From contig JAFWEE010000010.1 of NCBI GenBank assembly GCA_017515795.1, forward strand, positions 8,144-72,143: DNA of 64,000 nucleotides. Reading direction: 5' to 3'. Under the pieces are notes generated by a model, which saw nothing but the letters and a program-made list of their open reading frames with translations, did no database searches and was not told the origin of the DNA. The DNA is from Bacilli bacterium. Its GTDB lineage: Bacteria > Bacillota_I > Bacilli_A > RF39 > UBA660. Shown here one piece after another: positions 3,913 to 60,833 of the stretch. The position numbers were made by a program, and so were the translations under genes. Each line of letters begins with the position of its first letter. The first letter of the stretch is position 1.

Positions 3913-3972
3913 TTGTAATACAAGTAAAATATTGCTATAATTCATAATGTGTGAAACTAAAGGAGGATGTAT

Positions 3973-5886
3973 ATGCCTGCAAAATATGATGAAAGTTCGA
4001 TAAAAGTATTAGAAGGTTTAGAAGCAGTTAGAAAAAGACCAGGTATGTATATTGGGTCTACTGATAAAAGAGGATTACATCATTTAGTATGGGAAATAGT
4101 AGATAACTCTATAGACGAAGTAATGAATGGATATGGAGATACTATTAAGATTACTATTAATGCTGATGGATCTATTACTATAGAAGATAATGGTAGAGGT
4201 GTACCAGTAGGTAAACATGAAACTGGTAAGAGTACTGTTGAAGTAATTTATACTATGCTTCATGCTGGTGGTAAATTTGAAGAAGGTAACTATAAAGTTT
4301 CTGGAGGATTACACGGTGTTGGTGCATCTGTTGTTAATGCTTTATCTAGTTATATGATAGTTAACTCTAAAAGAGATGGTAAAGAATACTCTATTACATT
4401 TAAAAATGGCGGTGAAGTAGATTCTAAATTAAAAGAAATAGGTAAAACTAATAAGACAGGAACTACTGTTACATTCTTACCTAATAAAGATCTATTTAGT
4501 GTTACAGATTTCTCTTATAGTACTATATGTGAAAGAATGCAAGAGTCTGCATTCTTACTAAAAGGACTAACAGTAGAAGTTAATGATAATAGAAATGATA
4601 GACATGATAAATATCATTATGATAACGGTATTAAATCATTCGTAGAATATATAAACGAAGATAAAACTCCAATAAATAATATTCATCACTTTAAAGGTAG
4701 TAAAGATGGTATAGAAGTAGAAATAGCTATGCAATATACTGATTCTTATAATGAAAACATTATTTCATTTGTTAACAATGTTAAAACAAGTGATGGTGGA
4801 ACTCATGAAGTAGGATTTAAGAGTGGTTTAACTAAAACATTTAATGATTATGCTAGAAAAAATAATTTCTTAAAAGCTAAAGATAAAAACTTTGAAGGAG
4901 CAGATGTAAGAGAAGGTTTAACTGCTATTATATCTTTAAAAGTACCTGAAGCACTTCTTCAATTTGAAGGACAAACTAAAGGAAAACTAGGTACTCCAAT
5001 AGCAAAAACAGTAGTAGAACAAATTACATCTGAAAATCTAGGATTTTACCTTGAAGAAAATAAAGATGGTGCAGTTAATATTATTAATAAAGCACTTAAA
5101 GGTAAAATGGCTAGAGATGCAGCTAGAAAAGCAAGAGATGATGCTAGAAAGAGTACTGGTACTAAAAAGGAAAAGAATATTTCTGATAAACTTGCTCCTG
5201 CAGCTAGACATGATAATAAGAAAAATGAATTATTTATAGTAGAGGGAGACTCTGCTGGTGGATCTGCTAAATCAGGAAGAGATAGAACATATCAAGCAAT
5301 ACTTCCACTTAGAGGTAAAGTATTAAATACTGAAAAAGCATCACTTGATGATGCATATAAAAATGCTGAAATAAATACTTTAATATATACAATTGGTGCT
5401 GGTGTAGGAGGAGACTTTAATGTAGATAGTTGTAACTATGATAAAGTTATAATAATGACCGATGCCGATGTTGATGGATGTCATATTCAAGTTCTATTAA
5501 TTACTTTCTTCTATAGATATATGAAACCTCTTATAGAAGCCGGTAAATTATATATTGCTTGTCCACCACTTTATAAAGTTAAATTTAGTAAAAATGAAGA
5601 AATATATGTATATTCTGATGAAGAATTAAAAGAAGTTACTGCTGGTAAAAAAGTAGAAGACCTTCAAAGATATAAAGGACTTGGTGAAATGGATGCTTCT
5701 CAACTTTGGGAAACAACTATGGACCCTGCTACTAGAACTTTAATTAGAGTAAATCTAACAGATGCAGTACTAGCTGAAAAAAGAGTATCTGTATTAATGG
5801 GTGAAAAAGTAGAACCAAGAAAAGTATGGATTGAAGAAAACGTAGAATTCTCATTAGAAGATGACTATAAGATAAATGGGGAGTAG
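3973..5886 (+). CDS. parE: DNA topoisomerase IV subunit B
   Basis: VLEGLEAVRKRPGMYIGST, GLHHLVWEIVDNSIDE, EGDSAGGSAK and the Toprim block DADVDGCHI. Assigned to topo IV through its partner gene. The ATG at 3973 lies 6 nt after AGGAGG, whereas the track start at 3967 abuts the RBS. Confidence 0.9.
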   Translation: MPAKYDESSIKVLEGLEAVRKRPGMYIGSTDKRGLHHLVWEIVDNSIDEVMNGYGDTIKITINADGSITIEDNGRGVPVGKHETGKSTVEVIYTMLHAGGKFEEGNYKVSGGLHGVGASVVNALSSYMIVNSKRDGKEYSITFKNGGEVDSKLKEIGKTNKTGTTVTFLPNKDLFSVTDFSYSTICERMQESAFLLKGLTVEVNDNRNDRHDKYHYDNGIKSFVEYINEDKTPINNIHHFKGSKDGIEVEIAMQYTDSYNENIISFVNNVKTSDGGTHEVGFKSGLTKTFNDYARKNNFLKAKDKNFEGADVREGLTAIISLKVPEALLQFEGQTKGKLGTPIAKTVVEQITSENLGFYLEENKDGAVNIINKALKGKMARDAARKARDDARKSTGTKKEKNISDKLAPAARHDNKKNELFIVEGDSAGGSAKSGRDRTYQAILPLRGKVLNTEKASLDDAYKNAEINTLIYTIGAGVGGDFNVDSCNYDKVIIMTDADVDGCHIQVLLITFFYRYMKPLIEAGKLYIACPPLYKVKFSKNEEIYVYSDEELKEVTAGKKVEDLQRYKGLGEMDASQLWETTMDPATRTLIRVNLTDAVLAEKRVSVLMGEKVEPRKVWIEENVEFSLEDDYKINGE

Positions 5887-5895
5887 GTGATTAAT

Positions 5896-8508
5896 ATGGC
5901 AAAGAAGAAACAAACTGAAGAAATAATACAAAAGATTAATGACTATGCTCTAGAAGAAATTATGGGTGATAGATTTGGTAGATATGCTAAAGAAATTATC
6001 CAAGATAGAGCTATCCCTGATGTAAGAGATGGTTTAAAGCCTGTTCAAAGAAGAATTTTATATGGTATGTATAAGAGTAAAAATACATATGATAATAAAT
6101 ATAGAAAGTCTGCTAGAGCAGTCGGTGAAATCATGGGTAAATACCATCCACATGGTGATTCATCAATTTATGATGCAATGGTAAGAATGAGCCAAGATTG
6201 GAAAATGCTTACTCCATATGTAGATATGCATGGTAATAATGGATCTATGGATGGTGACAGCGCTGCTGCTATGCGTTATACAGAAGTTAGACTTTCTAAA
6301 ATAGCAGGTGAATTATTAAAAGACATAGAAAAAGATACTGTAGAAATGGCTCCAAACTATGATGATACAGAACTTGAACCTACAGTACTTCCTTGTAAAT
6401 TTCCTAACTTACTTGTTAATGGTACAACAGGTATTTCTGCTGGATATGCAACTGATATTCCACCTCATAATTTAGGTGAAATAATAGATGCTACTATTCT
6501 TAGAATAGATAAACCAAAATGTACATTAGATGACATAATGGAAATAGTTCAAGGACCAGACTTTTCAACAGGTGGAACTGTAGAAGGTAAAGATGAAATA
6601 AGAAAAGCTTTAGAATGTGGTAAAGGAAGAATAATAGTTAAATCTAAATATACTATTGTTAATGAAAAAGGTAAGAATCAAATAATTATTACTGAAATAC
6701 CATATGAAGTTAATAAAGCTAATCTTGTTAAGAAAATAAATGATATTAGAATAGAAAAGAAAATAGATGGTATTAATGAAGTAATAGACTCTTCTTCTAG
6801 AGGAGAACTAATTATTACTATAGATCTTAAAAAAGATGCTAATTCTGAGTTAATACTAAATTACTTACTTAAGAATACTGATATGCAAGTAGGTTATAGT
6901 TACAATATGGTAGCTATAGTAAATAGAAGACCTAAAGAAGTAGGTATTATAGATATATTAGATGCTTATATTGCTCATCAAAAAGAAGTAGTAACTAGAA
7001 GATCTAAATTTGATTTAGCACATGCTAAAGCAAGATTTCATATAGTAGAAGGTCTAATAAAAGCTATTTCTATATTAGATGATGTAATTAAGACAATTAG
7101 AGCTTCTAAGAATAGACAAGATGCAACAGAAAACTTAGTAAAAGAATATGCATTTACTTTTGAACAAGCAGATGCAATTGTTAAATTACAATTATATAGA
7201 TTAACTAATACAGACGTTGCAATACTTAAAGAAGAATTAGAAAAATTAAAAGCATTAATAGAAGAACTAGAAGCACTTCTTTCAGATGAAAAGAAATTAA
7301 TGAAACAGATTAAGAAAGAACTTACTGAAGTAAGAAAAGAATATGCTGAAGATAGAAAAACTCTTATAGTAGATGAAATAACTGAAATAAAAATAGATCA
7401 AGATGCATTAATTGCTAAAGAAGATGTAATAGTAGTAGTAACTAAAGAAGGTTATGTTAAGAGAACTTCTCTTAGAAGTTATTCAGCTTCTGAAGCAGAT
7501 GATCTTGCATTAAAAGAAAATGATTATGTAATTGGTATGTATGAAATGAATACTAAAGATACATTACTTATATTTACAGATCTAGGTAATTTCTTATCAG
7601 TACCTGTTCATATGCTTCCAGATTTAAAATGGAAAGATATGGGTAAACATATTAGTAATATTATTACTATTAAAGATGAAGAAAAAGTAATAACATCTAT
7701 GCCTATATATGATTTTGATAAGAAAGAATATATAACTATATTTACAAAGAATGGTATGACTAAGAGAACTAATCTAATAGATTATAAAATCTTAAGTAGA
7801 AGACCATCAGTATGTATGAAATTAAAAGGTGATGATAAAGTAGTTAGTGTTATTAAGAAGAATATGGATAATGTATTTGTATGTACTTCTGATAACTATG
7901 GACTTATTTATCATTTAAATGAAATACCTGTTTTAGGACTTAAAGCATCAGGAGTTAAATCTATTAAACTAGGTAAAGATAAAGTAGTATCTGCTGATAT
8001 CTATGATGATGCAGAATATATTACATTATTTACAGAAAACTCCGCTAAGAGGATAAAACTAGAAGAATTAGAAGTAAGTGCTAGGGCAAGGAGAGGATCA
8101 CTTTTAATTAGATTAATCAAAACAAATCCTCAAAACATTATTAAAGCCTTTGTTACAGATACTAAAGAGTTATTTGGAGTACTTTCTATTAAAGAAATAT
8201 TTGAACTAAAGAATAGTGAAATAAAACTTGCAGATAGACATGCTGCTCCTAGTAGTATTTCTAAACAAAGAATAATGGATATATTTAGAATTGCTGAAAT
8301 AGAAAAAGATACTAAATCTATCCCAAAAGTTATAGAAGAACCAGAAGAAACTATAGAAGAACTAGAACTATTTACTGAAGAAGAAGCTCCTATAGTAGAA
8401 GCACCAAAGAAAGAAGAAAAGAAAGAAAAGAAAAAAGAAGTATCACTTCAAGAAATAGATGACGAGATACTTACAATAGATGACTTTTTGAATGATTTTA
8501 AGATCTAG
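5896..8508 (+). CDS. parC: DNA topoisomerase IV subunit A, with an unusually long acidic/lysine-rich C-terminal tail
   Basis: MGDRFGRYAKEIIQDRAIPDVRDGLKPVQRRILY is the Gram-positive ParC-type N-terminus. No GyrA-box (QRRGGKG) is visible in the C-terminal domain. The ATG at 5896 lies 5 nt after AGGTGA. Confidence 0.9.
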   Translation: MAKKKQTEEIIQKINDYALEEIMGDRFGRYAKEIIQDRAIPDVRDGLKPVQRRILYGMYKSKNTYDNKYRKSARAVGEIMGKYHPHGDSSIYDAMVRMSQDWKMLTPYVDMHGNNGSMDGDSAAAMRYTEVRLSKIAGELLKDIEKDTVEMAPNYDDTELEPTVLPCKFPNLLVNGTTGISAGYATDIPPHNLGEIIDATILRIDKPKCTLDDIMEIVQGPDFSTGGTVEGKDEIRKALECGKGRIIVKSKYTIVNEKGKNQIIITEIPYEVNKANLVKKINDIRIEKKIDGINEVIDSSSRGELIITIDLKKDANSELILNYLLKNTDMQVGYSYNMVAIVNRRPKEVGIIDILDAYIAHQKEVVTRRSKFDLAHAKARFHIVEGLIKAISILDDVIKTIRASKNRQDATENLVKEYAFTFEQADAIVKLQLYRLTNTDVAILKEELEKLKALIEELEALLSDEKKLMKQIKKELTEVRKEYAEDRKTLIVDEITEIKIDQDALIAKEDVIVVVTKEGYVKRTSLRSYSASEADDLALKENDYVIGMYEMNTKDTLLIFTDLGNFLSVPVHMLPDLKWKDMGKHISNIITIKDEEKVITSMPIYDFDKKEYITIFTKNGMTKRTNLIDYKILSRRPSVCMKLKGDDKVVSVIKKNMDNVFVCTSDNYGLIYHLNEIPVLGLKASGVKSIKLGKDKVVSADIYDDAEYITLFTENSAKRIKLEELEVSARARRGSLLIRLIKTNPQNIIKAFVTDTKELFGVLSIKEIFELKNSEIKLADRHAAPSSISKQRIMDIFRIAEIEKDTKSIPKVIEEPEETIEELELFTEEEAPIVEAPKKEEKKEKKKEVSLQEIDDEILTIDDFLNDFKI

Positions 8509-29810: not shown

Positions 29811-31358
29811 ATGGAAAAGAAGAAGAAAAAAACAAAATCTAAAAAGACTAAGAATAAGAATAAAACTAGCAAAAAGATTGTTAGTAGAATTATAAACGTA
29901 CTATCCATTGTAGCAGTTACATTATTCTTGTGGTATTCATATCATATAAATATTATTCCAATGAAATACTATAGAATTGCTGCATTATCATTAGTAGGTT
30001 TTGAAATTATTTATACATTATTATGTATTAACAAGAAAAAATCTGGAATAATATTAAAACTATTTAATGTATTAGCTCTTTTATTCATTATTGGATGTGG
30101 AGTTGGATATTGGTATTTAAATAAAACGGTTGCCTTTATAGAAGAAAACTTTAAGAAGAATTATACATATGATGAATATTATATTCTTACAAATAAAGAT
30201 TCATCATTTAATACTATTAAAGATATTAAGGGTAAAACAATATATTATAATGTTGATACAGATTACTATGCTGAAATTAAAACAGAATTGAAAAAGAAAA
30301 CAACTGCTAAAATATCAAAAGTTGATTCTTTATCAGATTCACTTGGAGTTTTAGCTGAACCAGATACTTTAATTCTATTAAGTTCTGGATTATATGATTC
30401 AATTTCAACATATGATGAGGGATATATAAATCATATAAAAATAGTTGATACTATAAGAATAATAGTACCAAGAGTACAAGAAGAAAAAGAAAAAGAAATT
30501 GATTTAACAAATACGCCATTTATTATTTATTTAAGTGGTATAGATACTAGAACTGAAACATTAGTTAAAAAGAGTCTTAGTGACGTTAATATGTTTATAG
30601 TTGTTAATCCTAATACTAAAACAATATTACTTGTTAGTATTCCAAGAGATTCTTATGTTCCACTTCATGGATATAATGGTAGGAAAGATAAATTAACTCA
30701 TGCTGGATCTTTAGGTGGCCTAGAATTATCAAAAGCAACAAGTGAAGATGTATTAGACATCCATGCAGATTATTATGCAAGAGTAAACTTTAGAGCAGTT
30801 GTTAACTTAGTTGATGCTGTTGGTGGTGTAGTTGTTCAAGAAGAACCATATATAACAAAGAGATTTTCTTGTTGGACAAATAGAAAATGCTGGATAGAAC
30901 CAGGTGAAAACTATTTAACAGGTGAATGTGCATTAGCATTTGCTAGAGAAAGATATCATTATTATGATGGTGATATGCAAAGAAATAAGAACCAACAAAA
31001 AGTATTACAAGCGTTATTTAATAAGTTATCATCAAGTACTTATATGGTTGCTCATTATGATAAATTCTTAAATGCCGTAGCAGGTACTTTTGAAACTGAT
31101 ATGTCTCCAGAAGATATTAAAAAGTTAATTAAGTTCCAATTAAATGATATGTCACCTTGGACATTTGAATCACAAAATGTAGTTGGTGGTACTGGAAGAA
31201 CAACAACATATTCTTCAGGATCTACAGAATTATCAGTTGTTTATCCAAATCAAAAGTCTATAAATGAAGCTAAAGAAGCTATCAGAAAAGTATTAGCTGG
31301 TGAATCACTTCATCCAGAAGAAAATACTACTACTGAAGGTGAAAATGCTGCACAATAA
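29811..31358 (+). CDS. LCP (LytR-CpsA-Psr) family glycopolymer-to-peptidoglycan ligase
   Basis: Lys-rich N-terminus and TM helices. Core FIIYLSGIDTR...SDVNMFIVVNPNTKTILLVSIPRDSYV...KLTHA and ALAFARERYHY. Confidence 0.85.
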   Translation: MEKKKKKTKSKKTKNKNKTSKKIVSRIINVLSIVAVTLFLWYSYHINIIPMKYYRIAALSLVGFEIIYTLLCINKKKSGIILKLFNVLALLFIIGCGVGYWYLNKTVAFIEENFKKNYTYDEYYILTNKDSSFNTIKDIKGKTIYYNVDTDYYAEIKTELKKKTTAKISKVDSLSDSLGVLAEPDTLILLSSGLYDSISTYDEGYINHIKIVDTIRIIVPRVQEEKEKEIDLTNTPFIIYLSGIDTRTETLVKKSLSDVNMFIVVNPNTKTILLVSIPRDSYVPLHGYNGRKDKLTHAGSLGGLELSKATSEDVLDIHADYYARVNFRAVVNLVDAVGGVVVQEEPYITKRFSCWTNRKCWIEPGENYLTGECALAFARERYHYYDGDMQRNKNQQKVLQALFNKLSSSTYMVAHYDKFLNAVAGTFETDMSPEDIKKLIKFQLNDMSPWTFESQNVVGGTGRTTTYSSGSTELSVVYPNQKSINEAKEAIRKVLAGESLHPEENTTTEGENAAQ

Positions 31359-31385
31359 GTTTTGCTAAAAAGCAAAACTTTTTTA
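31358..31385 (+). terminator. rho-independent terminator
   Basis: AGTTTTGCT-AAAA-AGCAAAACT followed by TTTTT. Confidence 0.55.
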
Positions 31386-31431
31386 TTTAAATAAAATAAT
31401 ACATGTTATAATATTGTTAGGAGGTATTACT

Positions 31432-32592
31432 ATGGATAAAAACAAATTATTTGATAAATTTATAATGATATTTTTAATAATTAGTCCTATATTAGATTTC
31501 TTTGCATATGTTCAAAAAGAATATATTAAATTTCCAATATCAATAAGTCTAATTATTAGGGGATTATTCTTGTTAATAATATTTATATATTTAATTAGAA
31601 AACAAGATAATAGAAAAATATTATTATTCTTTTTAATATATTTTATATTAGCACTTGGTTCTTATTTATTAAGAAAAGTAAATATATATTATGAAATAGT
31701 TAATCTTTTAAAGATATTCTATTTACCTATAATGATGTTATTCTTTTCTAAATATACTAATTCTAAAATAGATGATAAATTTATATTAAAAGTATATATA
31801 GTTTATATTATTACTTTTGTTATAATGCATATATTAAAGTTAGACACTCAATATATTCCTATTATTAGTGCTATATTAGTAGGATTATTACCTGTAACAT
31901 TAAATTATGTAATGGAATCAAAGAATTATATATTAAAGGTAGTATTTTATTTACTATTGGGGTTAATAACATATTTAATTGGTACTAGATTATTAGTTAC
32001 TGGATTCTTAGTTGTATTCTTTGGAGTATATGTTATGAGATACAAACTAGAATTTATTTATAATAATTTTAAAAGAAGATTTACTATTATTCTTTCGTTT
32101 ATTGGATTCCTAGTAGTATTTGGAATAATAGTTAGATTTACTCCTTTCTACGGAATAATGAAAGATACTATAACATCTTTAAATATCCATTCATTAAGAG
32201 ATGTTTATAGATTTAATACAATAGATCAATTAATATTCTCTGGTGGTCTTTCACAATTTGCAGATATTATGAAGGATTTCATAAAAGGTGGATATGACAC
32301 AATTATGTATGGCCTTGGTTGGAATGGTGTAGAAACTTTAACTAAAATAGATCCTTTTGATATATTAGTTACTACAGGTATTTTTGGTAGTGCTATATTT
32401 ATAATAATGTTTACTTATGTTAATTTTAGAACTGAGTTAAAAAAAGAACATTATTATTCATATGTAATGTTTTTAGCAATAGCGGTATTTGCTGGAAGAA
32501 CATTATTATATCCATCAGTATCATTATTTATAGCAGTTCTTTATTTAGTGTCTGCTAATTCAATTAAAATCGAAAAAAAAAAATACTCCTAG
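31432..32592 (+). CDS. polytopic membrane protein, O-antigen ligase/polymerase-like
   Basis: About 10-12 TM helices. The ATG at 31432 lies 7 nt after AGGAGG. The reading frame ends 9 nt after an A11 tract. Confidence 0.6.
   Translation: MDKNKLFDKFIMIFLIISPILDFFAYVQKEYIKFPISISLIIRGLFLLIIFIYLIRKQDNRKILLFFLIYFILALGSYLLRKVNIYYEIVNLLKIFYLPIMMLFFSKYTNSKIDDKFILKVYIVYIITFVIMHILKLDTQYIPIISAILVGLLPVTLNYVMESKNYILKVVFYLLLGLITYLIGTRLLVTGFLVVFFGVYVMRYKLEFIYNNFKRRFTIILSFIGFLVVFGIIVRFTPFYGIMKDTITSLNIHSLRDVYRFNTIDQLIFSGGLSQFADIMKDFIKGGYDTIMYGLGWNGVETLTKIDPFDILVTTGIFGSAIFIIMFTYVNFRTELKKEHYYSYVMFLAIAVFAGRTLLYPSVSLFIAVLYLVSANSIKIEKKKYS
32573..32583 (+). repeat. homopolymeric A11 tract at the junction of two reading frames
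   Basis: Counted directly: cg + 8 A at 32571..32580, then 3 A at 32581..32583. Confidence 0.95.
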
Positions 32593-33662
32593 TATCTAAT
32601 TTATATCCATCAAAAAAATATGAGTATTATGGAGTATATATTAAGAATGTTAAAGAAATATTAGATACAAAGTATGATGTTTCTTTAATAGTAGTTCATA
32701 AAGAAGAAAAAATATTAAAGAAATTATTATCTTATATATATTTACATACTAGAGTAATTCTTAAGGGTATATTTAATAATTATGATTATATTTATGTTCA
32801 TAATATAGCAAGAACTTCGTTTGGTGCAGTTTTAATTAAGTTAACATCAAAGAATACAAAACTTATTATGAATGCTCACACAAATGATATTATTGATGAT
32901 AGAGAAAAAGATTTAGAATATATTAGAAAAACTAGAAGATATATAAGTTTTGCTGATAAAGTTATTGTTCCATCTGAATATTTTAAAAATATTATAAGAG
33001 ATAATTATTATTATGATGAATCAAAAATAGTTATATATCCATCTGGTGGAGTAGACACTGATATTTTTAAAGATGCTGATAAAAAAGAAGCACTTGAAAG
33101 ATTAAATCTTAATAGTAAATATAAATATGTAGGATTTGCATCTAGAATAGAAGCAAATAAAGGATATGATATTTATCTTAGATTTATAAAAGAATTAGAA
33201 AAAGATAAAAAAATAGGTAATTATAGATTTTTAATTGTAGGTACAGGTTCAGAAGAAAATAAACTAAATAGTTTAATTAAAGATTTATCCTTAGAAAAAT
33301 ATGTAGAAGTTAGAAGTATGCTTGAATTAAAAGAATTGGTGGACTTCTATAATTCCTTAGATGTATTTATTTTTCCAACTTATAGAAGAAGTGAAAGTCT
33401 TGGGCTTGTTGGACTTGAAGCTATGTCATGTGGTTGTTTTGTAATAGCATCCGATAACTATGGACCTAGCAGTTATATTAAGAATAATAAAAATGGATTT
33501 ACTTTTAAAAGTAAAGATCCAATAGATTTAAAAAATAGATTTATAGAATATACAAATCTAAATAATGAAAAATTGAATAAAATCATTTCTAAAGCTATAG
33601 AGACTGCTAAAGAATATGATAAAAATAGTACAAAAGACATTATTTTAAAAGTTTTTGAATAA
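32574..33662 (+). CDS. family 4 glycosyltransferase with a full-length reading frame but no start codon for its N-terminal ~98 codons (frameshifted, fused or phase-variable)
   Basis: The track ORF 32868..33662 covers only the C-terminal two thirds (ESLGLVGLEAMSCGCFVI E-x7-E region). The same frame stays open back to 32568 and encodes KKKILLVSNLYPSKKYEYYGVYIKN, a typical GT4 N-terminus. There is no ATG, GTG or TTG in frame before 32868. Confidence 0.7.
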   Translation, partial: KKKILLVSNLYPSKKYEYYGVYIKNVKEILDTKYDVSLIVVHKEEKILKKLLSYIYLHTRVILKGIFNNYDYIYVHNIARTSFGAVLIKLTSKNTKLIMNAHTNDIIDDREKDLEYIRKTRRYISFADKVIVPSEYFKNIIRDNYYYDESKIVIYPSGGVDTDIFKDADKKEALERLNLNSKYKYVGFASRIEANKGYDIYLRFIKELEKDKKIGNYRFLIVGTGSEENKLNSLIKDLSLEKYVEVRSMLELKELVDFYNSLDVFIFPTYRRSESLGLVGLEAMSCGCFVIASDNYGPSSYIKNNKNGFTFKSKDPIDLKNRFIEYTNLNNEKLNKIISKAIETAKEYDKNSTKDIILKVFE

Positions 33663-33730
33663 AACACTATATTTATTTCTATATTTTTGATAGAATATAT
33701 ATCTATATTCTTTTAATGACGGAGGAATAA

Positions 33731-34885
33731 ATGAAAAATATTATTATAATTGGTTCAAAAGGATATGAATGTAATTATGGTGGATGGGAGACATTTGTTT
33801 CCAATTTAATTAATAATTATAAAGATGATGATATTAGATTCTTTGTTCCAGAATTATCATTTAAAATGAATAGTAATATAGAAATAAGAAATGGTGTAAT
33901 ATGCAAACAAGTATTTATACCTAAACATGGTTATTTTACCATGTTTAGTTTTGTTATTAAGGCACTTCTTTATTACACTAAACTTATTAGAAAAGAAAGA
34001 ATGAAGAATGTAATCATATATATGCTTGGTTGCAGGGGTGGATTAATTATTCCATTTATTAAAAAGAGATTATCTAAAATGGGTGTTAAGATTATTACTA
34101 ATCCTGGTAGTATTGATTGGAAGATTGAATCTAAACCATGGATTATTAGAAAACTATCAAAAATATCTGAAAAGAAAATGATTAATGCATCTAATTTAGT
34201 AGTTTGTGATAGTAAAATGGTAGAAAACTATATTAAAGAAAACTATGATGTTCAAACTAAATATATTCCTATGGGATCTAGACTAAATGAAGTAAAAGAT
34301 ATTGATAAAAAAACAAGAATATTCATGGAAAAAAAGAATATTAGAAAAAGAGAATACTATTTAGTTATTGTAAGATTTGTCCCTAAGAATAATATTGAAT
34401 TAATAATTAAAGAATTTATGCTTAGTGATACTAAAAAAGATTTAGTAATTGTATCTGATATAGAAAAGAATAAATACTATGATAGATTATTAAAAACTAC
34501 AAATTTTGATAAAGATAAAAGAATTAAATTTGTAGGACCTATTTATGATAAAGATATTATTACTAGACTAAGAGTATATGCTAAAGCAAATATTTATGGA
34601 CATAAAGAGGGAGGTATTAATCCATCTTTAATAGAGAACTTATCAACAACAGATATTAATATAGTTTATGAAAATGAATATAATAAAGAGGTTGGAAAAG
34701 ACTCTTGTATATATTTTACTGATGAAGCATTTATGTTAAGAGATATTTTAGATAAAGTAGATAACTTTAAAACAAGAGAATATGAAGAGTATGGTAACAA
34801 AGCAAAAGAAAGAATAAAGGAAGAGTATAATCTTGATTCTATAATGAACAAGTATAAAAAAATATTTAATAATTTATTGAAGTAA
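33731..34885 (+). CDS. glycosyltransferase with DUF1972 N-terminal domain (WchF/RgpA-like)
   Basis: IIIIGSKGYECNYGGWETFVSNLINNY matches the DUF1972 signature (G-S-R/K-G...YGG-F/W-ETFV). RBS GGAGG. Confidence 0.8.
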   Translation: MKNIIIIGSKGYECNYGGWETFVSNLINNYKDDDIRFFVPELSFKMNSNIEIRNGVICKQVFIPKHGYFTMFSFVIKALLYYTKLIRKERMKNVIIYMLGCRGGLIIPFIKKRLSKMGVKIITNPGSIDWKIESKPWIIRKLSKISEKKMINASNLVVCDSKMVENYIKENYDVQTKYIPMGSRLNEVKDIDKKTRIFMEKKNIRKREYYLVIVRFVPKNNIELIIKEFMLSDTKKDLVIVSDIEKNKYYDRLLKTTNFDKDKRIKFVGPIYDKDIITRLRVYAKANIYGHKEGGINPSLIENLSTTDINIVYENEYNKEVGKDSCIYFTDEAFMLRDILDKVDNFKTREYEEYGNKAKERIKEEYNLDSIMNKYKKIFNNLLK

Positions 34886-54093: not shown

Positions 54094-57000
54094 ATGAATA
54101 ATAAATCAAATAAAAACAAAAGAAGTTTTGTTAAATCTATAATCCCAGCATTATCTATAATAATGATAATAACTGCTATTTTATTAGTAGTTTATACATT
54201 AGATAGTAAGAAATTTAATAAAGGAAGAGTAGTCTATGATTCAGACTATACGATGCATGTAATGTATCTAGTTATGGATAAAGCGGAGGTCCCTAAAGAT
54301 ATTACTATAGATAAGACATTTGATCCTGCCTATAGTGAGTTCCCAATAGGCATTTTATCAACTTCTAGTTCTATTGTTCCTTTAACTAAAAAAGGTGATT
54401 ATTTATATGTAGATCTTGATAAATTTACTAATCCAGAACTTTTAAAAAATGAAACTGATTACATATTTACTAAAACAAATATTAATGGTGAAGTTATTGA
54501 TGGATGTGAATATGATAAAAAGGAAAATGTAATAAAAGTCCCTGCATCATATTTTGAAGAGAACAAAACAATTCCTATACAGATGGAACTTCAAACATTA
54601 ATGGATTATTCAGTTTATGAAAATCTTGAAACAAAAGTTAATGTTAAAAAATTTATTACTAATAAAGTTAAAGCAAAGAATAATGCATTGGCATTTCAAA
54701 CAAGTGTTTATTTAGGTAAAAACGGACCTGGAGAACTCCAAAATAAAAATGTGCATGTGTATGTTAATAATTCTAAAATAGAATTAGAAGACGATAGATA
54801 TGAAATCAATAATAATACACTTACTGTATTTTTACCACCACTTCAAATAAGTGAACTTGATGTAAAAGTAGATTATACGTTAAGTAGTGCAAAAGCAGTA
54901 GCATGTTTAAATAATTCACAAAAAGATTGTGATGATTCACAACAAGGATTTAATGATAATTGGAGAGGTATTAAAGTTTCTCAACCAATTGATTATACTT
55001 CATGGGGTAAGAGTTCATTACCTGTTGTTGAAGAATATCCAAGACAAAATAATCCAAAAGCGGAAGAAAGTAATCCACCACAAAGATGGACTAAAATCAT
55101 CACTTTAAGTACAGGATATGGTAATCCTGGTGATCAATATGATGTTGTTTATTGTAGTAATACAAAGAGTGCTTCTGGGTGTATTGATTCATATAATAAT
55201 GAAATAGTATTTCCTGCTACAGCTGCAAACTGGGCATATACTTATGTTCCTTATGTAACTGATAATTGGCCAAGTGATACTCCATCTGGAACAATATATA
55301 ACGTATATAATTATAGTGTTAATTCTAATAATAAAATTAATTCATATTTAGAAACACTTTATACCTATAAAATAAAATTAACATCTTTATTGGACGGTAT
55401 TCAATCAGGTTTAAGTACTGATGGTACATTTGATCCTGTCCATGAAGGATATAATACTTCTTGGCTTGCATTCTATTGTACACATCATAGTACTAGTTAT
55501 GATTATGGAAATGTTTCAGAAACAAATCCTATGAGAATGGCCGTTATGGTTATGCAAGAATCTACAAATTCAATAATTGTAAAATTTCAATCAATAAATA
55601 CATATGATTCTCAAGCTGCAGGAGCTTACATGAGATTCTATTGGGATCAAGTTCAAGTAAATGCTGGATTAAGAGTTAAGAAAACTGATAATTCAAGTCC
55701 AACTGGACTTCCAATTAAAGGTGTAAGAATAACAATTCAAAATAGAGCAGATTCATCTGATATTCATACTGATACAACTGGTGCAGATGGTATTGTGACA
55801 TTCTCTGGTTTACCTCTTGGTGCTAAATATAATATATACGAAGATTGTTCAAACTATTCTATAACTTATCCGGGAAATAGTTCTGATCCAGAAGATACAG
55901 GAACGTTTGCTAGTTTAGGTTTGAGTTGTGATTATCCATCAACATCACCATATACAAATAATGGTAATGGTGTTGCAGCAGTAGAAGATTATACTTCTGG
56001 ATCAACTGGATTATACTCAATATCTAATGCTAGAAAACCATATGGCTTAAGAATCAAGAAAACTGATGATTCAGCAACACCTATACCAATTAAAGGATTG
56101 CAAATTACAATAAAAAATAAAACTACAGGTGCTACTATTACAAAAACTACAAATGATGCTGGTATTGCAACATTTGATAATTTACCTGTAGGATCTAAAT
56201 ATACAGTAACTGAAAATTGTAGTTCAACAATTTCATATAATGGACATAATAATACAACATTAGATGCAGAAGATATTGCATGTTCATATGATTCATCTAA
56301 TCCATATGCTGGAACTGATGGAACTGGTGTTGCAGCAGTAGAAAATTATACTTCTGGATCAACTGGTTTATATGAAATAAGTAATGCTAAATATAGACAT
56401 TGTGCTTTTGTTAAGAAGGTTAAAGGTCCAAATAAAAAAGTAGAGCCTAATGCTAGATTCCAATTAATAATACCTGCTAATGTATGTAGGAATTATGCTT
56501 CAGGTACAACACTTACTCAAACTACTAATTTAAATGGTATTGCTGAATTTAATGGACTTGGAAACTGTAGTGGAGCAAAATTTGTAAATGCTAAACTAGT
56601 AGACCAAGAACATTTAGCTTCATTAATAGGTTCTGATACTCAACAAGTAGAACTTAGACGTACAACAATCTATGTTACTAAGAATTCTGGTATTGATTAT
56701 AAAGGTAAACATTATGCTAAGAATACACAAGTAGTTATTTCAGATAGAGATTGGAATACATATAAGAATGATGTAGAAGAAATCTGCGTTGGAACTGTAT
56801 ATCCATCATCTAATGGTTCTGGAACAACAGAATTTGTAGATAAGGGATATGTTCTATTATGGAATAAAATTAATAAAACACACAGAACTAATGTTAGTGA
56901 TCGTGGTCCAGCAATGGCTAATATTAAATTTAGTGTTAAAGATAGTCATAATAATACTATAAGAGTATTATCCTCTAAAGCAAATTATACGGATATTGAA

Positions 57001-60000
57001 AGTGTTACTAAGAATTGTTATACATATACAGATCAAACAGGAAGTGGTACTCAAGATTTTGTTGTTTCAGATGCAAATGGTATGGTTTGTATTTCAAATC
57101 TACCAAATGAAGAACAATTTACTATAACTGAAGAAACTACAAGTTTCTATAATAATTCATATATACGTATAAATTCTAGTGAAAAGTTTAGTACATTTAC
57201 TTCAACTGATTATAATAATAATGAATATGTTATAGATTGGGTTAAGAAAGAATATAATAATGGTAAAACATCTAATAGTGATGGAAGTTTAAAACAAACT
57301 ACATTTACTGTAGTTGATTCTAGTAATGTAACTATTAAGACTAAACCAAATAAAGAAGAAGTATTAGATACTAATGGTGTTAAAAAGAATTGTTATGTAA
57401 TAGATATAGATACACCTCTAAATAATACTAATGAATACTTTGTAACTGATAATGATGGTTATGTATGTATTGTTGGAACTAAATCAGGAATGACTTATAC
57501 TATTACAGAGTCTACACCTCCAACATATTACTCTGCTAGTGATACTAATACTCAAACAACAACTTCTAAGTTAACATTTATGGATGCAAATACTAAGAGA
57601 TTTAATAACTGTCCAACAGAAGTAGAAATTTCTAAAACTACTACTGAATACAGTAATGCATCTGCTGAATATAAAGCATTAATTAAAGAAGAATTAAAGA
57701 AATTAACATTCAATATTTATGATAGTGAAAATCATTTATTATTCTTTACTTACAATTCAGAATCAAAGCATTATGAATATACAACTGCAATTAATGCATT
57801 AACTGGTAATACATATATTGGTGCACCAGAATTAAGATTAAATGATGATTTAAAGATTTTAGTTGATTATTTACCTGAAGGTAGTTATGTATTAAAAGAA
57901 GCAAGTTCTGTATCTTGTGCATCTAATGGTGGTGCTGCTAATGGAAGTAATTGTACTTGCTCAAATAATACAACAAGTGGTGGAGGTACTCCAGCTGAAA
58001 CTGCATGTTCTAATATGGGATATGCTAAGATAGCAGATATTAACTTTAGTGTAACTAAGAATAATCATGGAGGAAGTTCAACATGTAATATGACTGATAC
58101 TTCAGTTAAGATACCTATTACTAATAAGCCTACAAAAGTAAGCTTTACTAAGAGTGATATGTATGGATACTTTAGTGGTACAGATACTGTTACATTTGAA
58201 AATGAAGATGAAATTAAAGCATTTGATAATATTATTTTTAGAGTAAGAAAACAAAGTACTATTAATTCATCTGGAACTACTTCAGAAGCTAATAGTAACT
58301 TTGAATGGTTTTATAAAACTGCTAATGGAGAATATAGATATGATGCACTTCATGTATGTACTAGAGAAGGAGATATTGTAGCAGGTTATAGATGTACACA
58401 AAACTTATTTACTAATCGTGGTAGTATGACAATTAGACATTTATGTAAATGTGAAACATATTTAATAGAAGAATATGAAGTTCCAGAAGGAACAGTATTC
58501 ATATTACCAAAAGCTGAAAATAATACATGTGAAGCTGGATATCTAAAAGTAGATAAAGGTGGAAAGATAGAATGCCATCCAATTAAAACTGTTAAGATAT
58601 GTGATTGTGATGATGATAATCCTGAATCATCTCCACCAGTATTAATTGAAGATAAACCAACTAAACAAGTATTTATAAAGAAGGATTTAAAATATAATAC
58701 AATTATTACTGATCAAAATACTACATTTGAAGTATTCTTAACTAAAGAAGAAGCAGCAAATGCTGGAAGAAAATGTAATCCTTATGATGCAACATCTAAG
58801 GCAAATGACTGTATTCAAATATATTTTGAAAAGAATAAAATATTAGATCCAGATGAAACAGAAAGAGTATATGCTTATAGAATTGCTAAAGATGGAACAT
58901 CTGCTAATAATAAGACTAAAGAATTACATGTCGATGAAAATACAGGTAAATTAATTCTTAGATATTTACCTTCATATATTTCAAGAGAATATGTATTATA
59001 TGAAACTAAAGCTCCTAAAGGATATGATTTACCAAAAGGAGAAAAAGCAGTAACAAGATTTACAGTAGTTAATGATACTATAAATGTAGATATTACTAAT
59101 GTTCCAAATAAACCTACAAAGGTTATTGTTAGTAAATATGATAAAGCTACTGGTAAATTAATACCTGGATTTAAGTTTAAAGTTTATAAAGTAAATAATT
59201 ATGATCCTAACTTAAGTGCTATGAAACAATCAATGAGTTCAGCATTAGAGTTTAAGACTATTAGAGATGGTTCTTATGAGTATAGAGAAGTGTTTGATAC
59301 TGATTTAATTACTACTTGTACTGATAGAGCAGGTTCTCCTTGCAGTAGTATTAGTAGTACTCTAGTAGATAGTGAATTTAGTAGTACTCCTATGGGAGAA
59401 AATAATATTACTATTAGAGAAGGTCAAGCATTAATTCAATACTTAGATAGTGATTCATACTATGTAATAGAGGAAGTAGAAGCTCCTGAAGGATATAAAC
59501 TTCCTGATAAAGAGAGTGAAAGATATACTTTATTCCACATAGATGAAACAGAGGAAACATCTGTTATATCTAGAATTTATAATACTGAGAACTATTTCAC
59601 ATATTATAAATATGATGATTATAATAGATTAATTGATGGTGCCGTATTTAAACTTCAAAAACTTAATAAAGATAAAGTTTATGAAGATGTTCCATTAGAA
59701 GAAATAGAATCTGAAGATGCTAAGATATATAAAGTATCTTCTACATCTGATAATTATGAGATGACAACATTAAATGGACAAGCAACCATTTATAGACTTA
59801 CAGAAGGTCAATATAGAGTACTTGAAATAAGTGCTCCAGAAGGATATGAACTTCCTAAGAAAACATATAATGTTGTAACATTCTTTGTAGATAAAAATGG
59901 TAGTATTTATGGTTCTAATATAATTGCTAATAAGAAAACTACTGATAGGAAATTTACTGTTCCAACTTCAGAAGCTGAGTTAGTAGTAACTATTCAAACT

Positions 60001-60093
60001 GGTCAAGTTGTAATTAAATATGGACTTATAATAACAGGAATACTTGGACTAATAGGACTTCTAATATTTATTAGAAAAAAGATTAGTAAGTAG
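54094..60093 (+). CDS. giant cell-surface protein (1999 aa) with multiple Cna-B/SpaA-type (prealbumin-fold) domains and a C-terminal anchor
   Basis: N-terminal signal/anchor helix. Repeated domain hallmarks: GL-R-I/V-KKTD...P-I-K-G...T-D-x-x-G...F-x-x-L-P-x-G-x-KY and E-x-x-AP-x-GY (EVEAPEGYKLP, ETKAPKGYDLP, EISAPEGYELP). The C-terminus is TIQTGQ + a hydrophobic helix + RKKISK. Confidence 0.85.
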   Translation: MNNKSNKNKRSFVKSIIPALSIIMIITAILLVVYTLDSKKFNKGRVVYDSDYTMHVMYLVMDKAEVPKDITIDKTFDPAYSEFPIGILSTSSSIVPLTKKGDYLYVDLDKFTNPELLKNETDYIFTKTNINGEVIDGCEYDKKENVIKVPASYFEENKTIPIQMELQTLMDYSVYENLETKVNVKKFITNKVKAKNNALAFQTSVYLGKNGPGELQNKNVHVYVNNSKIELEDDRYEINNNTLTVFLPPLQISELDVKVDYTLSSAKAVACLNNSQKDCDDSQQGFNDNWRGIKVSQPIDYTSWGKSSLPVVEEYPRQNNPKAEESNPPQRWTKIITLSTGYGNPGDQYDVVYCSNTKSASGCIDSYNNEIVFPATAANWAYTYVPYVTDNWPSDTPSGTIYNVYNYSVNSNNKINSYLETLYTYKIKLTSLLDGIQSGLSTDGTFDPVHEGYNTSWLAFYCTHHSTSYDYGNVSETNPMRMAVMVMQESTNSIIVKFQSINTYDSQAAGAYMRFYWDQVQVNAGLRVKKTDNSSPTGLPIKGVRITIQNRADSSDIHTDTTGADGIVTFSGLPLGAKYNIYEDCSNYSITYPGNSSDPEDTGTFASLGLSCDYPSTSPYTNNGNGVAAVEDYTSGSTGLYSISNARKPYGLRIKKTDDSATPIPIKGLQITIKNKTTGATITKTTNDAGIATFDNLPVGSKYTVTENCSSTISYNGHNNTTLDAEDIACSYDSSNPYAGTDGTGVAAVENYTSGSTGLYEISNAKYRHCAFVKKVKGPNKKVEPNARFQLIIPANVCRNYASGTTLTQTTNLNGIAEFNGLGNCSGAKFVNAKLVDQEHLASLIGSDTQQVELRRTTIYVTKNSGIDYKGKHYAKNTQVVISDRDWNTYKNDVEEICVGTVYPSSNGSGTTEFVDKGYVLLWNKINKTHRTNVSDRGPAMANIKFSVKDSHNNTIRVLSSKANYTDIESVTKNCYTYTDQTGSGTQDFVVSDANGMVCISNLPNEEQFTITEETTSFYNNSYIRINSSEKFSTFTSTDYNNNEYVIDWVKKEYNNGKTSNSDGSLKQTTFTVVDSSNVTIKTKPNKEEVLDTNGVKKNCYVIDIDTPLNNTNEYFVTDNDGYVCIVGTKSGMTYTITESTPPTYYSASDTNTQTTTSKLTFMDANTKRFNNCPTEVEISKTTTEYSNASAEYKALIKEELKKLTFNIYDSENHLLFFTYNSESKHYEYTTAINALTGNTYIGAPELRLNDDLKILVDYLPEGSYVLKEASSVSCASNGGAANGSNCTCSNNTTSGGGTPAETACSNMGYAKIADINFSVTKNNHGGSSTCNMTDTSVKIPITNKPTKVSFTKSDMYGYFSGTDTVTFENEDEIKAFDNIIFRVRKQSTINSSGTTSEANSNFEWFYKTANGEYRYDALHVCTREGDIVAGYRCTQNLFTNRGSMTIRHLCKCETYLIEEYEVPEGTVFILPKAENNTCEAGYLKVDKGGKIECHPIKTVKICDCDDDNPESSPPVLIEDKPTKQVFIKKDLKYNTIITDQNTTFEVFLTKEEAANAGRKCNPYDATSKANDCIQIYFEKNKILDPDETERVYAYRIAKDGTSANNKTKELHVDENTGKLILRYLPSYISREYVLYETKAPKGYDLPKGEKAVTRFTVVNDTINVDITNVPNKPTKVIVSKYDKATGKLIPGFKFKVYKVNNYDPNLSAMKQSMSSALEFKTIRDGSYEYREVFDTDLITTCTDRAGSPCSSISSTLVDSEFSSTPMGENNITIREGQALIQYLDSDSYYVIEEVEAPEGYKLPDKESERYTLFHIDETEETSVISRIYNTENYFTYYKYDDYNRLIDGAVFKLQKLNKDKVYEDVPLEEIESEDAKIYKVSSTSDNYEMTTLNGQATIYRLTEGQYRVLEISAPEGYELPKKTYNVVTFFVDKNGSIYGSNIIANKKTTDRKFTVPTSEAELVVTIQTGQVVIKYGLIITGILGLIGLLIFIRKKISK
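55666..56421 (+). repeat. two tandem 126-codon repeat units inside the surface-protein gene
   Basis: Units start at 55666 (GLRVKKTD) and 56044 (GLRIKKTD). They include a ~42-nt stretch differing at only two positions (ggtgttgcagcagtagaaGattatacttctggatcaactggA at 55969 versus ...aAatt...ggT at 56326). Confidence 0.8.
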
Positions 60094-60797: not shown

Positions 60798-60833
60798 ATT
60801 AAAAAAAAAGACTTAAAGTCTTAATATTATAAG

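Follow-up and report, generated by a model that had tools for sequence, protein, structure and literature searches.

In a 64,000-nucleotide (nt) stretch of an uncultured Bacilli genome (lineage RF39, UBA660; contig JAFWEE010000010.1 of assembly GCA_017515795.1, positions 8,144 to 72,143, hereafter the window), a run of eleven adenines (A11) lies between two open reading frames (ORFs), one for a polytopic membrane module and one, in the -1 frame, for a GT4 glycosyltransferase with a start-less N-terminal half. Comparison with relatives suggests that the two ORFs are probably a single functional gene, slippage-dependent (recoded) at the run, with the membrane module joined to a cytoplasmic GT4 enzyme. 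The same junction is in frame in most of the family, is displaced by the same single base in several sister lineages, and both sides of it are conserved as protein.

The junction and its relatives

At the junction, the 0 frame reads ATT AAA ATC GAA AAA AAA AAA TAC TCC TAG, and the A11 would need one more A to give the in-frame GAA AAA AAA AAA ATA. In the window, the gene-caller output for the GT4 is 32868-33662 alone (264 amino acids (aa)). Upstream of 32868 the frame of this ORF stays open as far as 32568, just after a TAA at 32565-32567, and translates from there as NRKKKILLVSNLYPSKKYEYYGVYIKNVKEILDTKYDVSLIVV (also given as NRKKKILLVSNLYPSKKYEYYG); its 100 codons between 32568 and 32867 include no ATG, GTG or TTG. 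One additional A would produce a fusion of 743 aa, in which the junction reads IKIEKKKILLVSNLYPS (also given as IKIEKKKILLVSN) and the predicted junction peptide is KKKILLVSNLYPSKKYE. A preliminary description of the window had reported the membrane frame stopping at 32592, the A11, the -1 frame open from 32568 and the lack of a start before 32868, all of which are borne out by direct reading. It had also anticipated that A12 would fuse the ORFs and that the start-less stretch encodes the N-terminal half of a GT4 enzyme; the predicted junction, IEKKKILLVSN, is indeed that of an in-frame ortholog (P0001, below), and the extended downstream frame matches Pfam Glyco_transf_4 as well as Glycos_transf_1.

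With the hypothetical fusion as query, over 100 clusters of proteins 737-769 aa long were found with 100% query coverage. The cluster search appeared to favour matches near the query length (the 386- and 264-aa split products were absent with the 743-aa query, and the 743-aa ortholog was absent with the GT4 half as query), and cluster counts are lower bounds. Most of these clusters carry PF13425 and GT4 domains, and where a name is given, in a few cases, it is 'O-antigen ligase family protein [Bacilli bacterium]'. In a scan of one genome per species, approximately 70 species carry the gene in a single frame. Hosts of the fused gene are uncultured Bacilli, Erysipelotrichaceae and 'Tenericutes' metagenome-assembled genomes from rumen, rabbit, mouse, chicken and human gut. 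Judged by these comparisons, the membrane-module/GT4 fusion is the norm of the family and evidently its ancestral state; the preliminary description had regarded such a fusion as an unusual architecture, where in this family it is the rule.

The best match, P0001, has 66% identity and is exactly 743 aa long, and its gene order matches that of the window (acyltransferase, DUF3048, LytR-CpsA-Psr (LCP), fusion, DUF1972 glycosyltransferase, GH25, GDSL). Its in-frame junction is ATT AAA ATA GAA AAG AAA AAG ATA TTA. The membrane ORF of the window is collinear with residues 1-384 of the 743-aa ortholog, and the alignment of the window to P0001 contains a single one-base gap, located inside the A-run. 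Across the family the junction, ...KKK-ILLVSN(M)YP, is among the best-conserved parts of the protein, with K382, I385 and L386 nearly invariant and L387-N390 invariant. In-frame family members always have a junction A-run of ≤8, because it is interrupted by AAG codons: the AAG share of Lys codons in in-frame relatives is 34.5% at the junction vs 17.9% gene-wide (p = 1.9e-5), and 8/8 in-frame KKK junctions are interrupted by AAG.

Two species representatives, L037 and L038, are split at the junction of the window, as are six contigs found via the GT4 half (L142, L143, L144, L145, L146 and L147). The runs are GT-A9-G in L142, G-A17-T in L143, TC-A10-T in L144, GT-A10-T in L146, L037, L038 and L145, and G-A10-G in L147; L143 has two extra Lys codons, and its count of A17 is the least certain. 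Every frameshifted run is pure and lacks exactly one A, the GT4 being in the -1 frame, and none of the 24 contigs from frameshifted lineages that were compared in addition to the window is in frame. Tract length is constant at A10 in the 3/3 contigs of the L037/L038/L145 group. The comparison of orthologous loci that the preliminary description had proposed thus separates fused in-frame relatives with broken tracts from sister lineages one A short. The 0-frame tail differs among lineages (YS*, YY*, SS*, SC* and RSS*, the asterisk being the stop), and the -1-frame I/V-L-L is kept, with codons 385-387 varying synonymously (ATA/ATC/GTA, CTC/CTG/CTA and CTA/TTA). The clade formed by the window, the sister lineages and the in-frame L001/L002 has 100% bootstrap support. 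Within it, three subclades are wholly frameshifted (99-100% bootstrap), namely window + L142 + L143, L144 + L146, and L037 + L038 + L145; L147 is a further frameshifted lineage beside these three, and L001/L002 is the only in-frame lineage. L145 is an L038 strain with a mosaic patch, and was counted as an extra assembly rather than as an independent lineage. It equals L038 but for 34 codons with 38 nt differences (GT4 codons 544-577, locus approx. 3960-4062); this patch resembles a distant 737-aa group, and stems either from gene conversion over a short tract or from chimeric metagenome assembly.

Further contigs of the species of the window were found by exact identity of window-encoded proteins. 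The LCP and 249-aa gene look-ups are unbiased, since neither depends on the split. The LCP, 249-aa and 264-aa products gave matches, and the exact-identity look-up with the DUF1972 protein gave none. A11 is present in 16/16 further junction-spanning contigs of the species, from 16 assemblies and several accession series, the names of which (k141, NODE, scaffold, Logan) suggest different assemblers. These contigs include L004, diverged by 0.85% (18 substitutions, 17 synonymous and 1 non-synonymous), and L148, diverged by 2% (46 substitutions, amounting to 32 synonymous and 10 non-synonymous codon changes, with no indel). The exact A12 product is absent among 15 billion proteins, and both split products are present there. 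Of the proposal that a plain fused gene is hidden by an assembly error, the fusion therefore stands as the ancestral form, seen in P0001, and the error does not, with A11 in all 16 contigs.

A run of this length is expected by composition, with a window GC content of 25.2%: shuffled sequences contain a mean of 2.64 A11, and at least one in 82/100 shuffles. A/T runs of ≥9 are strongly depleted in the window (1-64000), with four overlapping matches at two loci vs 16.6 +/- 5.7 in shuffled sequence. The A11 is the longest homopolymer of the window and its sole coding run of ≥9, the other being an intergenic A9 at 60801-60809. What is noteworthy is where the A11 sits, rather than that it exists.

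Selection and structure of the two halves

All frameshifted copies are collinear (384 + 359 codons), with no indels or stops. In the start-less segment (codons 385-479) the ratio of non-synonymous to synonymous substitution rates (dN/dS) is 0.15-0.32 between frameshifted lineages, at a synonymous divergence (dS) of 0.5-1.0, and inside frameshifted subclades it is 0.30 for window-L142, 0.20 for window-L143 and 0.15 for L144-L146. Pairs with L145 were left out of the dN/dS ranges, as the mosaic patch inflates them. Over the 95 codons of this segment in seven lineages there are 0 stops in the -1 frame vs 61 and 120 in the other frames, and after random substitution with the observed numbers of changes the proportion of trials in which the segment remains stop-free is 0.4-0.7% with the window subclade and 1.6-2.8% with the others. 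In the rest of the GT4, dN/dS is 0.08-0.21. The membrane half has dN/dS of 0.05-0.23 within subclades in which it is complete, and 0.33-0.46 in comparisons with the window, L147 or L001. Between L037 and L038, the membrane half has 32 synonymous and 7 non-synonymous changes, and the GT4 half has 14 and 5. As far as codon substitution can be read, both halves, including the start-less segment, are shown to be under purifying selection, and the same pattern shows a start-less segment that is apparently translated in the -1 frame.

The membrane half evolves faster than the GT4 half. Between the window and L143, L142, L147 and L144, amino-acid identity is 52-57% in the membrane half and 77-85% in the GT4 half, with dN/dS of 0.33-0.41 vs 0.08-0.21 for the same lineages. 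A fast membrane half would fit a surface-exposed or substrate-specific module.

In the AlphaFold 2 (AF2) model of the closest in-frame ortholog (predicted local distance difference test score (pLDDT) 89.3), the last transmembrane (TM) helix ends at residue 376 and is followed by a 7-residue linker, after which the GT4 Rossmann fold opens with its first strand, at residues 384-389 (KILLVS). Using Foldseek, the GT4 part of this model superposes on full two-domain GT4 enzymes including MshA and BshA (TM-score up to 0.79, approximately 380-400 columns). According to the model, the start-less segment is integral to the GT4 enzyme. The window keeps 52/53 family-invariant residues, including the paired glutamates E655/E663, and 49-52 of the 53 are kept in frameshifted lineages, the same as in the in-frame relative. 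At codon 460 (window 32808-32810), the window, L142 and L143 have Ala and 52/52 aligned in-frame family members have Ser; apart from this position, the window subclade keeps all but one or two of the invariant residues.

The AF2 model of the membrane module (pLDDT 87.9) consists entirely of helices, with the last TM helix at 361-376. PF13425 (O-antigen_lig) matches this module with 35.8 bits vs a cut-off of 31, and covers residues 6-132 only. A PDB sequence search with the membrane half gave no match, and a Foldseek search with the membrane-module model found nothing below E = 0.1 among solved structures; in the fold search with the whole protein the GT4 part had dominated the matches. The label 'O-antigen ligase' is therefore weak, due to the partial Pfam match and the lack of a significant match among solved structures. 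The earlier wording, O-antigen-ligase-like, holds to the extent of the above-cut-off PF13425 match, and does not extend beyond residues 6-132 or to any solved structure.

Stand-alone membrane modules are also found in the family. In L069, L077, L080, L082, L089, L090, L100 and L102, a second membrane module, 23-29% identical to the membrane half, is encoded approximately 3 kb upstream of the fused gene. Coexistence of a free membrane module with the fusion thus has precedent in the family. Two members have a second fused-like copy, and extra copies lie downstream in L039 and L051. In P0105 (856 aa), a distant member, a GtrA-like domain (PF04138) precedes the membrane module at the N-terminus, making a triple fusion.

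Reaching the -1 frame, and other explanations

In the proposed course of events, the Lys-rich linker between the last TM helix and the first GT4 strand would have turned into an uninterrupted run of adenines, one too few to stay in frame. Under standard decoding, translation would stop after ...EKKKYS, to give the 386-aa membrane protein, and RNA-polymerase slippage adding one A to the mRNA would give the 743-aa fusion. Alternatively, the fusion could be made by a ribosomal -1 shift on A_AAA_AAA; both routes would yield an identical peptide, ...IEKKKILLVSN.... We infer slippage as the route, the step at which it acts (polymerase or ribosome) and its efficiency. The window, L142 and L143 have no canonical start from the run to codon 480, with GTA at codon 388 and no Met at 391, and a scan for Shine-Dalgarno (SD)-like motifs before candidate restart codons found none. 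From the lack of a start and of an SD-like motif, the synonymous variation of codons 385-387 and the unconserved 0-frame tail, it follows that translation must enter from the upstream ORF. A terminator scan found no terminator-like site between the halves, the sole one in 31250-33800 being the hairpin at the end of the LCP gene (31357-31380). A promoter scan gave 24 sites vs 24.8 expected in this AT-rich DNA, and is uninformative on an internal promoter for the 264-aa ORF.

Slippage is efficient on nine A/T, and the RNA-DNA hybrid is 9-10 bp long (PMC5009743). Transcriptional slippage is the favoured candidate over a ribosomal shift, since the runs are all ≥9, about the length of the hybrid, no conserved stimulator is present, and there is a precedent in tssM1 (below). 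The 0 frame does provide a -1 heptamer, A_AAA_AAA (A_AAA_AAG in L142), with the GT4 in the -1 frame. Conserved downstream RNA structure was considered as a frameshift stimulator and rejected on the RNAalifold result given below; without a conserved stimulator, the ribosomal -1 variant is weakened. Single-sequence fold z-scores are -3.7 to +1.0. Among the possibilities raised in the preliminary description, programmed slippage fits best, with the frameshift in several lineages and purifying selection on both halves.

Several observations weigh against slippage-dependent expression of a single gene. The placement of L001 inside or at the base of the clade is poorly supported (22% vs 48% bootstrap), so that the one-short state may be merely tolerated or of repeated origin. 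By contig naming, the assemblies look like short-read consensus, in which minority tract lengths are invisible. L004 (ERZ28655180 scaffold_2242, 99.15% identical; 4566-6795) carries an extra 1-nt deletion, AAGAATT -> AAGATT, at window-equivalent 31924; this splits its membrane half into 167 + 211 aa, and is either a recent knock-out or an assembly error. The downstream fold found with RNAalifold (-8.96 kcal/mol) has 0 compensatory pairs and is also found in the in-frame ortholog, and the 40 nt read upstream of the run have no SD-like motif. In L144, L146 and L147, GTG at codon 388 overlaps the 0-frame TAG (TAGTG), and all lineages outside the window subclade have ATG at codon 391, making reinitiation conceivable there.

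The last of these points leads to a truly split gene, in which a separate GT4 polypeptide would be made by termination-reinitiation or from a non-canonical start near the 0-frame stop. Callers do annotate a GT4 of 353-356 aa in the lineages that have GTG 388 or ATG 391, and stand-alone GT4 enzymes are common. However, M391 is conserved family-wide and is thus not evidence of a start, codons 385-387, which lie 5' of the candidate starts, are conserved as protein, and a start at 388 or 391 would truncate the first Rossmann strand (384-389) of the AF2 model. On codon content, reinitiation cannot apply to the window subclade, which is start-less to codon 480 and nevertheless has dN/dS of 0.2-0.3 and no stops. 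A split gene is therefore unlikely. Similarly unlikely is phase variation by slipped-strand mispairing of DNA, in which A12 cells would be ON and A11 cells OFF, with the assemblies displaying a majority of OFF. A homopolymer in a surface-glycan gene is a classic device of this kind (PMC3711429), runs of A9-A17 are mutable, minority alleles are concealed in consensus assemblies, and a gene switched ON intermittently would likewise show purifying selection. Such a switch, which the preliminary description had put forward, is nevertheless disfavoured by the lack of any in-frame allele among the 24 contigs plus the window, by a length that is fixed within the species, by the occurrence of all lineages in one OFF class (one short) and never in the other, and by the absence of the exact ON product from the 15 billion proteins.

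A pseudogene, that is, a decaying locus in which a recent inactivating deletion took place at a mutational hot spot, would be suggested by loss of a single base in the longest homopolymer of the window, by the second frameshift of L004 and by the S460 -> A change of the window subclade. It is very improbable given that the frameshift is common to lineages with dS of 0.5-1.0, with ORFs intact at dN/dS of 0.05-0.46, that 49-52/53 invariant residues are kept, and that the start-less segment would be stop-free in <1-3% of neutral simulations. More improbable still is an artefact of sequencing or assembly, by which the real tract would be A12 and the gene a plain fusion. Homopolymers are error-prone and the A11 is the longest in the window; however, the 16 other contigs, apparently from different assemblers, agree on A11, the sister runs of 9, 10 and 17 are off by the same single base, and no other window gene appears split in a dense ORF map.

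Granted slippage-dependent expression, a further question is whether the one-short run is itself a selected signal that sets a ratio, the free membrane module and the fusion both being made deliberately in order to tune the synthesis or export of peptidoglycan-linked polysaccharide. This is a tentative proposal, which we consider possible but rather doubtful. Compatible with it are the stability of the out-of-frame length over dS of ~0.5-1.0, the A17 run, which would be a 6-nt expansion with the offset kept, the lack of an in-frame pure run anywhere, and the avoidance of long runs by in-frame relatives. If it is true, a conserved recoding site would here be described for the first time in the cell-wall glycopolymer pathways of Gram-positive bacteria.

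Comparison with known systems, and the locus

The closest likeness is to tssM1 of Citrobacter rodentium, in which the transcripts of an A11 contain 10-15 A's and both of the resulting products are needed (Gueguen et al. 2014, PMC4256274), the slippage having been demonstrated by mass spectrometry of RT-PCR (reverse transcription-polymerase chain reaction) products (PMC4256274). As in the window, tssM1 (and also tssM of Yersinia pseudotuberculosis) has A11 before a premature stop in a membrane protein gene with continuous orthologs, and tssM1 has no SD-like or structural stimulator. Standard decoding of tssM1 yields a shortened form that is anchored in the membrane, and mRNA with added A's yields the full-length one, as proposed here for the window. 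The two differ in that slippage of tssM1 was seen in RNA, with both forms needed, whereas that of the window is predicted from DNA. The window case also belongs to another gene family, in uncultured low-GC Bacilli and with a cell-wall glycopolymer, and its conservation across multiple lineages comes from comparative analysis.

In dnaX, slippage takes place on A9/A10, in Thermus thermophilus and in the two-ORF dnaX of Chlorobi, which needs recoding for the longer tau product (Antonov et al. 2013, PMC3711429; Atkins et al. 2016, PMC5009743). As proposed for the window, adjacent ORFs are joined by poly-A slippage, and species agree in where and in which direction the frame shifts; dnaX is essential to replication and requires both products in a defined stoichiometry, a need that is not known for the short product of the window gene. 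Ancient poly(A) frameshifts that are rescued by transcriptional slippage and maintained by selection are described for Buchnera and Blochmannia in PMC3017870 (citing Tamas et al. 2008 and Wernegreen et al. 2010). These endosymbionts share with the window AT-richness, an indel in a run of ≥9 A that is conserved without decay, and in-frame relatives with an interrupted tract. However, they have reduced genomes under strong drift, with 114-153 tracts per genome. The depletion of long runs in the window, and its single coding one, weigh more towards a site-specific state than towards drift.

Programmed ribosomal -1 frameshifting takes place on A_AAA_AAG or A_AAA_AAA in Escherichia coli dnaX and in the OrfAB of IS3 and IS1. 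Like the window, such sites have an X_XXY_YYZ heptamer, a downstream ORF in the -1 frame and a transframe fusion (predicted in the case of the window). The window differs from them in having no conserved stimulator of the usual kinds, whether a hairpin or pseudoknot 5-9 nt downstream or an SD-like element upstream, and in that the runs exceed the 7 nt that such frameshifting needs. Poly-G/C tracts switch glycosyltransferases in Neisseria, Campylobacter and Helicobacter. A poly-A contingency tract, that of p78 in Mycoplasma fermentans, is cited in PMC3711429. Contingency loci resemble the window in having a homopolymer in a surface-glycan gene, where one-base changes toggle the frame. They have both ON and OFF lengths among strains, whereas in the window species the length is fixed, with the same offset in every frameshifted lineage.

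In every assembly of these Bacilli of rumen and gut, annotation divides the gene between a hypothetical membrane protein of 386 aa and a truncated glycosyltransferase of 264-356 aa, and as a result protein catalogues lack the 743-aa enzyme. Recognition of the site would restore a conserved component of an LCP-linked wall-polysaccharide locus, and slippage-dependent expression would gain a natural example from beyond endosymbionts, mobile elements and proteobacterial secretion systems. The contrast among sister species between an AAG-broken in-frame linker and a pure one-short run makes it testable whether the state is selected or rescued.

The LCP gene adjoins the gene in all related loci, and the DUF1972 glycosyltransferase neighbour is conserved in related loci (see Table for positions in the window). 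Genes for Wzx, Wzy and UDP-galactopyranose mutase lie further upstream. Together, the LCP, Cps2T-like, Wzx, Wzy and UDP-galactopyranose mutase genes point to a putative role in cell-wall polysaccharide synthesis.

Table. Positions in the window of the split gene, its junction and the adjoining genes.
Feature	Position	Strand	Description
Membrane module ORF, 0 frame	31432..32592	+	386 aa, C-terminus ...IKIEKKKYS*; product of standard decoding
SD-like GGAGG	31420..31424	+	7 nt 5' of ATG 31432; sequence reading
Terminator-like hairpin of the preceding LCP gene	31357-31380		Terminator scan
A11 slippery run	32573..32583	+	Codes E(381)KKK; proposed slippage/shift site
TAG stop, 0 frame	32590..32592	+	Two codons past A11
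Start-less -1-frame part	32568..32867	+	Predicted first beta strand and N-terminal Rossmann half of GT4; includes fusion residues 385-479
Complete GT4 (GT-B) coding sequence, -1 frame	32583..33662	+	I385-E743 + stop
LCP glycopolymer-to-peptidoglycan ligase gene	29811..31358	+	Adjoins upstream; PF03816, 1.3e-39
DUF1972/GT4 gene, Cps2T beta-1,4-rhamnosyltransferase-like	33731..34885	+	Adjoins downstream; NF046071, 367 bits, under the cut-off of 500

In L007 (3105-7868), sulfatase, DUF4422, GT2 and GT4 genes replace the 249-aa gene, GH25 and GDSL downstream of the DUF1972 gene, and the frameshifted gene has 1 substitution vs the window over 1868 nt. This suggests cassette exchange between strains in the polysaccharide locus. 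Elsewhere in the window, one ORF of 1999 aa is found on the + strand at 54094-60093.

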